From Candidatus Poseidoniales archaeon (GTDB lineage: Archaea; Thermoplasmatota; Poseidoniia; MGIII; CG-Epi1), in contig JBJLCC010000022.1 of assembly GCA_045567855.1 (NCBI GenBank), positions 1 through 32,927 on the forward strand: a DNA stretch of 32,927 bases. Reading direction: 5' to 3'. The notes beneath the pieces are model-generated. The model searched no databases, was not told the origin of the DNA, and worked only from the letters and a program-made list of their open reading frames with translations. This document shows positions 1 through 452 of this stretch, piece after piece (within the stretch, counting starts at the first letter, position 1; the number at the start of each line of letters is the position of its first letter). A program made the position numbers and the translations under genes.

Positions 1-119
1 CTTATTGTGCCATCAGCTAGTAATCCTTCAGTATCTAGTCTCAAGGTATAGTTTCCGGGAAGTAGCTTTTCAAAACAAAAAGATACGGATCGCCCATCAT
101 CTTCATCAGGACAATCAGA
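1..119 (-). pseudogene. Fragment of a surface or beta-sandwich-type protein, runs off the window start
   Basis: Minus frame reads SDCPDEDDGRSVSFCFEKLLPGNYTLRLDTEGLLADGTI. The LLPGNYTL motif is typical of Ig/carboxypeptidase-regulatory-like domains. An in-frame TGA at 126-128 lies upstream with no start codon between. Confidence 0.55.
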
Positions 120-120
120 A

Positions 121-186
121 GTAGTTCATGCACACGGCGATAATCTGTCTAGACTTTTTGAATTCTCAAAAAAGATTCAAGTAATT
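121..186 (+). pseudogene. Internal fragment of an mptE homolog, diverged from the in-window copy
   Basis: Reads [22 protein letters not shown] versus [22 protein letters not shown] at 20372-20437 (minus). Hand alignment gives 51/66 nt and 18/22 aa identical. Confidence 0.9.
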
Positions 187-300
187 CTGAAATATCTCCA
201 TTGAAACTACTTGCACCACCAAACATAGAATCCATATTAGTAACACTTGAAACATCCCAAGATTCAATATCTTGATTAAAATCGGTAGCGTAGAAAAACA
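184..300 (-). pseudogene. Fragment of a DUF285/BspA-type leucine-rich repeat surface protein
   Basis: Reads [38 protein letters not shown], matching the DUF285 consensus MFxxAxxFNQxIxxWDVSxVTNMxxMF. Confidence 0.85.
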
Positions 301-390
301 CAGAGATTTACCTGCAAAATCTGTTGCAATTACTAGCCTTGCTATGGCAGTTCCAATGTTCTTCATGGTATGGCTAATTTCGGGGCTACT
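301..390 (+). pseudogene. Fragment of an unidentified membrane protein (one TM helix)
   Basis: Frame from 302 reads [30 protein letters not shown], a hydrophobic helix with no gene context. Confidence 0.5.
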
Positions 391-452
391 GATCATCTGT
401 GAAGTTATCTGAATCTGTGTCATTGGTTGTTGGATCAGTACCGTAAACAGAC
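389..452 (-). pseudogene. Fragment of a Ca-binding GTDP/DTDxD acidic repeat (thrombospondin type-3-like) surface protein
   Basis: Reads SVYGTDPTTNDTDSDNFTDDQ, resembling the YGTDPxxxDTDxDGxxD repeat. Confidence 0.75.

Follow-up and report, generated by a model that had tools for sequence, protein, structure and literature searches.

The window analysed here is one entire contig (C22, 32,927 nt) of an archaeal genome that totals 973 kb in 56 contigs and is 68% complete. Its first 452 bases raise a question: does a chain of short fragments from different genes, standing in place of most of a trkH gene, belong to the chromosome of this archaeon, or was it put together outside the cell? The original prediction, made from the sequence alone, described five gene fragments fused back to back and offered two kinds of origin. 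One was a repeat-less capture array or end-joining scar archiving pieces of relatives' genes, and the other was a mundane ligation or MDA chimera at a contig end.

Searches of the window's own genome and of 31 same-genus genomes found separate homologues for each of five gene-internal pieces at 1-452, and the matches end at the piece borders, so that the described mosaic was recovered as such; in the 31 genomes no match crosses a junction by more than 1-3 nt. Base-level alignment places piece 1 at 1-119 (minus strand), with an ambiguous ‘AG’ at 120-121 that is common to piece 2; piece 2 at 120/122-186 (plus); piece 3 at 187-300 (minus), with an ‘AATT’ at 183-186 that is possibly shared; piece 4 at 300/301-391 (plus); and piece 5 at 392-453 (minus). 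The truncated native trkH follows at 453-653 on the minus strand, and its border rests on collinearity with same-strain contigs from position 453 onward. Aligned at base level against the donors, the joins overlap by 2, 0-4, 1, 0 and 1 nt, in this order, with no filler bases, and every base of 1-452 is assigned to some piece. A 6-nt microhomology (CTGATC, 389-394) proposed earlier did not survive this alignment, which leaves 0 nt of overlap at 391/392 against the best donors. The donor breakpoints at the five joins have no motif in common, and a repeat check of the mosaic saw neither direct nor inverted repeats at or between the junctions, as the original prediction had stated; the sole direct repeat in the mosaic is the internal 75-nt period of the DUF285 repeat.

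Translation confirmed that the reading frame of each piece is intact internally. The predicted strict alternation of orientation holds for the coding strands of the five pieces, a pattern of about 1 in 16, and is broken where piece 5 meets trkH, both of which lie on the minus strand; since donor genes sit on either chromosomal strand, we attach no mechanistic meaning to it. An open reading frame at 149..301 spans junctions and is known, by exact protein look-up, solely from the window's contig, and exact look-up of the truncated TrkH frame and of the other mosaic frames likewise gave no record besides the window's own. A probe across the 391/392 junction had no match in the genome, metagenome and viral contig collections, nor did piece-internal probes for pieces 1 and 2, and therefore neither a second instance nor a viral carrier was found in the collections searched.

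Piece 1 is an internal fragment of a conserved domain in a large surface-protein gene, reading SDCPDEDDGRSVSFCFEKLLPGNYTLRLDTEGLLADGTI, and is cut by the contig end. Of its first description as a beta-sandwich surface protein, the surface protein stands, while the beta-sandwich is putative, a Pfam scan having given no match for the donor domain. Over 12-119/121 it is 74-79% identical to single genes in 7 genus genomes, and a search of its own genome found no homologue. Piece 2 covers 22 codons of a gene for an MptE-like kinase, and its source is a different lineage of Marine Group III. Two metagenome contigs match it at 95.5% (L061, JGI 3300020455) and 94% (L060, ENA ERZ837885), with homology to both stopping at exactly 120 and 186. 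Against the window's own mptE copy (20372-20437), 20 kb downstream, it reaches just 77% identity, and against six relatives 74-80%. The product of that own mptE matches PF01973 in a Pfam scan and has no record on exact look-up, and the genome is placed in Marine Group III by its closest MptE homologues, which are labelled “Marine Group III euryarchaeote CG-Epi5” and “CG-Epi3”. Piece 3 carries about 1.5 units of a DUF285 repeat (37 residues; PF03382 on the own-genome homologue in C20), of which 231-300 is 97% identical to G011:C52:9732-9801 and 85% identical to the own C20, alongside many 75-85% matches to DUF285 arrays. The Pfam families of the homologues agree with the identities first read from the letters for pieces 2 and 3.

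Piece 4, first noticed as a membrane helix, can be refined to 30 codons of an OPT oligopeptide transporter (PF03169 on the homologous open reading frame in the own C38). Over 300-391 it is 100% identical to sequences in two other species of the genus (G003:C1:87542-87633 and G001:C132:3947-4038) and 97% identical to the own C38:16853-16940. Piece 5 derives from a 1370-aa S8 subtilase, of which it holds 20 codons of an acidic, Ca-binding, TSP3-like repeat (SVYGTDPTTNDTDSDNFTDD), in agreement with the Ca-binding repeat of the original prediction; it is 95% identical to G007:C57:2848-2909 and 92% identical to the own C1:3935-3996. The C1 reading frame matches PF00082, PF01483 and PF13385 (S8 subtilase, P-domain and LamG), with a sub-threshold TSP3_bac match. 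Large secreted or surface proteins are the source of three pieces out of five (piece 1, the DUF285 repeat and the TSP3-like repeat), which may be chance at n = 5 or may reflect a large share of such genes in these genomes.

Differences from the homologues at first, second and third codon positions number 8/4/19 in piece 1, 2/1/10 in piece 2 and 0/0/3-5 in piece 5, those of piece 5 being all synonymous third-position changes. Because of this third-position bias, and because piece 4 is 100% identical to relatives, the pieces are fresh copies of functional genes that have had no time to decay. The same bias and the identity of piece 4 to other species also removed decayed paralogue remnants of the strain's own genes from the list of candidates. 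The fragment-by-fragment search thus placed homologues of all five pieces in one Marine Group III genus, and the identities point to donors from at least three lineages within it. The donor loci are scattered: in G003 the piece homologues lie on five different contigs, and only that of piece 2 is on the trkH contig, 20 kb away.

What the mosaic displaces is a transporter gene. The first 67 codons of the native trkH are kept in the window and the mosaic replaces the remainder, so that the open reading frame at 435..653 continues from its trkH part for 6 codons into piece 5 and then stops. Its upstream partner trkA (660..2030, minus strand; TrkA_N and TrkA_C domains) is intact, and beyond it lie a gene for a VCA0040-like membrane protein and then one for a Nop-domain protein (PF01798 on a same-strain contig). 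The exact TrkA protein served as an anchor and was found on four other contigs, three of them from the same strain: L048, a 34.1-kb contig of NCBI GCA_045567935.1, is 99.987% identical to window 453-8030; L049 (ENA ERZ23491108) is 99.93% identical to 453-4997; and L051 (ENA ERZ27286360) is 99.97% identical to 453-3318. In all three, identity to the window ceases exactly at 453 and the sequence runs on into trkH, which is complete on L048 and L049 (522 aa; TrkH, PF02386) and extends for 283 codons to the contig end on L051. Reads that continue into a full-length trkH had been named in advance as one sign of an artefact, and the same-strain assemblies show such a continuation.

The same border recurs at greater distance. 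The twin contig C41 from the same bin (92.8% identity over 14 kb) is collinear with the window from exactly 453, and G003:C3 (82%) is collinear with window 453-32927 and breaks exactly at 453; both carry intact trkH, as do the same-strain contigs. Judged from these alignments, the mosaic replaces a gene of which the same strain, a sister population and the relatives examined there all have an intact copy, and it does not belong to the organism's normal chromosome. A private SNP at 465, close to the junction, was considered as the mark of a foreign trkH piece and dropped, as L049 and L051 have the same base. Past trkH, L048 carries a gene of 138 aa, orc1/cdc6 and the gene for the PolD small subunit. 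On this contig (7378-12301) orc1/cdc6 lies about 0.5-2 kb from trkH and the PolD gene comes next. We take it that this region could be the neighbourhood of a replication origin, in which case the breakpoint at 453 would lie near a probable origin.

The ends of the contigs indicate how the mosaic entered the assembly. Exact overlaps between contig tips in the own genome (11 in total) measure 119-120 nt in five cases and 106-108 nt in three, with single overlaps of 97, 88 and 72 nt, and C41:1-121 is identical to a contig interior, C22:14370-14490. Overlaps of this kind are what a de Bruijn assembly leaves behind when k is about 119. Names of the ENA contigs from the same strain begin with k119_, in the style of MEGAHIT. 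The inner pieces of the mosaic (61-114 nt) are all shorter than k, and piece 1 takes up exactly 119-121 nt at the contig end. Any stretch of 119 nt across the mosaic must therefore include a join and occurs only once, which leaves the graph unbranched, and the contig ends one k-mer into piece 1 because this is the first piece long enough to share a k-mer with its donor gene. The narrow range of piece sizes is thus partly a selection effect of the assembler, which can traverse only pieces shorter than k. A de Bruijn misjoin needs at least k-1 common bases and the donor flanks have no shared sequence at any junction; since the donors share no k-mer at the joins, the joins were present in the reads and a graph misjoin is excluded, which supports the earlier argument that the overlaps are too short for one.

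A search of the own genome found no copy in the bin of the strain's native DNA to the left of 453. C41 runs without a break through a 120-nt stretch that matches this native sequence exactly, which suggests that the native path was probably missing from the assembly graph as well. A chimera could then have become the only extension, depending on k and on the pruning rules of the assembler. Among 28 other contig ends, picked for their poor open reading frames and compared with relatives, 27 align to one or more relatives as a single collinear block and the other (the 3′ end of C52) is partly matched. No mosaic was seen at any of these 28 ends, just as the genome, metagenome and viral collections yielded no second instance; the lack of mosaics at other ends argues against a systematic fault of the pipeline.

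We consider it probable, at roughly 80%, that the 452-base mosaic is a technical artefact and does not belong to the archaeon's chromosome; its most likely source is a chimeric molecule of DNA produced in vitro. What was observed directly is the division into pieces, the blunt joins, the lack of the mosaic in other assemblies of the strain and the k-mer anatomy; this in-vitro origin and the joining chemistry are what we infer. Several co-occurring archaea of Marine Group III would have supplied short fragments (about 60-120+ bp), and these would have been joined without homology, by blunt ligation during library construction or in a ligation/amplification step, and one terminal piece would have been a trkH fragment from the window's own strain. 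This fragment would have attached the chimera to the real contig at a point where the native continuation was absent from the k~119 graph, and the contig would then have passed through all pieces shorter than k and come to a halt one k-mer into the first piece to exceed that length. As a matter of curation, bases 1-452 should be trimmed and the apparent loss of the TrkH potassium transporter treated as false. The case also illustrates how a chimera can survive large-k de Bruijn assembly, its pieces being shorter than k and all its k-mers therefore unique. If the joins were genuine, they would represent a striking capture of DNA between species of uncultured archaea.

One observation speaks against an artefact: a single Marine Group III genus, represented by at least three lineages, is the source of the five pieces as well as of the anchor. 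Marine Group III is generally considered to be low in abundance, and this makes the composition odd, because random ligation in a library from bulk seawater should include bacterial DNA. An in-vitro origin therefore needs a pool that was already rich in these archaea, such as sorted cells or pooled single-cell amplifications. In addition, if the reads were at most 150 nt, a 570-nt path at k~119 implies several different fragments, and the chimera would have formed before fragmentation rather than within one library insert.

Known laboratory chimeras resemble the mosaic in part. Insert-to-insert chimeras from blunt ligation, seen at the tips of draft contigs, likewise lack filler and homology, are gene-internal and randomly oriented, sit at the extreme contig end and are absent from other assemblies of the same strain. 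The mosaic differs from them in its unusually many joins (five in 452 nt), in pieces that come from one rare archaeal genus and do not follow community abundance, and in a path at k~119 that probably needed more than one read pair. In ligation-mediated whole-genome amplification, short fragments are randomly concatenated and then amplified with phi29. The product of such a procedure would resemble the mosaic in its blunt chains of 60-200 bp fragments, random in order and orientation and amplified to multi-read depth, but its input would still have to be enriched in Marine Group III.

As the mundane source the original prediction had named a ligation or MDA chimera, calling alternating inversions with microhomology typical of MDA template switching. 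A chimera at a contig end is supported by the intact trkH in three assemblies and by the mosaic's place at the very tip of the contig; the MDA component of that proposal is unlikely. Under it, displaced 3′ ends would have been primed repeatedly on other strands during MDA or another whole-genome amplification. With such an origin the mosaic would be covered by many independent fragments and the native sequence of the strain would break off abruptly where a template ended; it would also suit a genome that is 68% complete and in 56 contigs, and MDA chimeras are common (PMC1855051). The phi29 chimeras of single cells are, like the mosaic, rearrangements that precede the library, have multi-read support and often lie at template ends (Lasken and Stockwell 2007, PMC1855051). 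They are, however, mostly intramolecular and inverted between sites less than 10 kb apart, with overlaps of 2-21 nt and a mode of 5-8 nt (PMC1855051, PMC9984789), whereas the mosaic has overlaps of 0-2 nt at four joins and at most 4 nt at the remaining one, and joins unlinked loci from different lineages. A single-cell reaction, moreover, would be unable to supply several species. With overlaps of only 0-4 nt and unlinked loci from different genomes, the mosaic looks more like the product of blunt end-to-end joining than of template switching in MDA.

A real rearrangement inside the cell we regard as decidedly improbable. It would be private to a subpopulation, in which a break in trkH was repaired without homology and captured fragments of related Marine Group III genomes. 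Several features could be read this way: all the pieces come from congeners, as a cell-to-cell or virus-mediated supply of DNA would explain; the path is unbranched at 453 in the k~119 graph, so that the chimera is not a minor side branch; and the joins resemble end-joining products. Yet trkH is intact in the same strain in three other datasets (99.93-99.99% identity), one cell would have had to contain DNA from at least three other lineages simultaneously, none of the pieces is decayed, and no second example turned up in the genome, metagenome and viral collections. Ku (PF02735) is absent from all 32 genus genomes, with a positive control. The essential neighbours orc1/cdc6 and the PolD small subunit gene also seem to be absent from the assembly; a viable rearrangement accounts for this less well than incomplete sampling of the genome does. 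As to the inheritance of an NHEJ scar, the mosaic is missing from the three same-strain assemblies and its junction has no match in any collection.

Fainter still is the chance of the specific version in which the mosaic is real DNA of a subpopulation and a trkH break a few kilobases away from orc1/cdc6, and hence possibly close to a replication origin, was patched inside the cell, without Ku, using imported fragments of several Marine Group III species. If true, it would be direct evidence of frequent DNA exchange among uncultured Marine Group III archaea and of a homology-independent, multi-fragment capture pathway of repair in archaea. In eukaryotes, filler DNA and templated insertions at double-strand breaks, Helitrons and Pack-MULEs chain short gene fragments. 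These are alike in forming short chains from unrelated genes with blunt or microhomology joins, but they copy from the same genome and persist in lineages, whereas the mosaic drew on other lineages, other assemblies of the strain have the gene intact and Ku is missing from the genus.

A purely computational concatenation, in which a file-handling fault strung together quality-trimmed reads that had been recruited to the bin and the result entered a re-assembly, has very little to recommend it beyond three features that it would explain: joins that are blunt, pieces about as long as reads (61-120 nt) and the presence of Marine Group III sequences alone, since only bin-recruited reads would be involved. 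No such step is documented for the record and just 1 of 29 tested contig ends is affected; misjoining by the de Bruijn graph itself founders on donors that share no k-mer at any junction.

The idea of a programmed, repeat-less capture array beside trkH, storing gene fragments of relatives with enrichment of surface proteins, is barely credible: its fragments are similar in size, all come from relatives and in three of five cases from surface or secreted proteins, but there are neither repeats nor a leader, the donor breakpoints lack a common motif, the size range largely reflects selection by the assembler, no second locus of the kind was found, Cas1 (PF01867), the sort of gene that the original prediction had envisaged, is absent from all 32 genus genomes (controls positive), and nothing but trkH occupies the locus in other assemblies of the strain, in the twin population and in those relatives that were compared at this point, which brings the array close to refuted. 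CRISPR arrays are alike in the serial storage of short foreign DNA and differ in having repeats, a leader and a PAM-like motif, which the mosaic lacks, and in Cas1, which the genus lacks, and the pieces here are of unequal length (61-120 nt). Neither array nor end-joining scar, the two biological origins first proposed, is supported, there being no repeats, Cas1, Ku, second instance or decay, in a strain that is intact elsewhere.

Two further sources were rejected. Proximity ligation (Hi-C) was suggested by GATC at 391-394 and AATT at 183-186, but the donors have no such sites at these two breakpoints and the three other joins are siteless. Nuclease-protected archaeal chromatin fragments (about 60, 90 and 120 nt) were dropped because no histone-fold gene was found in the genome.

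Other features of the assembly were noted along the way. The bin contains two or more related populations, as window 453-14490 aligns to C41:1-14039 at 92.8% and the 2.6-kb C36 to C41:27091-29763 at 82-94%; with related stretches duplicated in this way the genome is a composite, despite a reported contamination of 0.5%. The last 450 nt of C40 are 99% identical to G003:C23:27158-27607 (98% to G001), compared with 82% between the window and G003 overall; this end closes in 60-nt tandem coding repeats and may belong to a recently exchanged or an unusually conserved gene. The first 500 nt of C26 give overlapping matches of 97-100% to two G007 contigs, and our guess is an rRNA or another conserved RNA. 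Finally, three independent metagenome assemblies (L053, L054 and L055) stop at the same base inside mptE (locus 3592; window ~20500-20800), next to the gene for a 1293-aa surface protein at 20795-24676, and this common end suggests the boundary of a strain-variable island that breaks assemblies.
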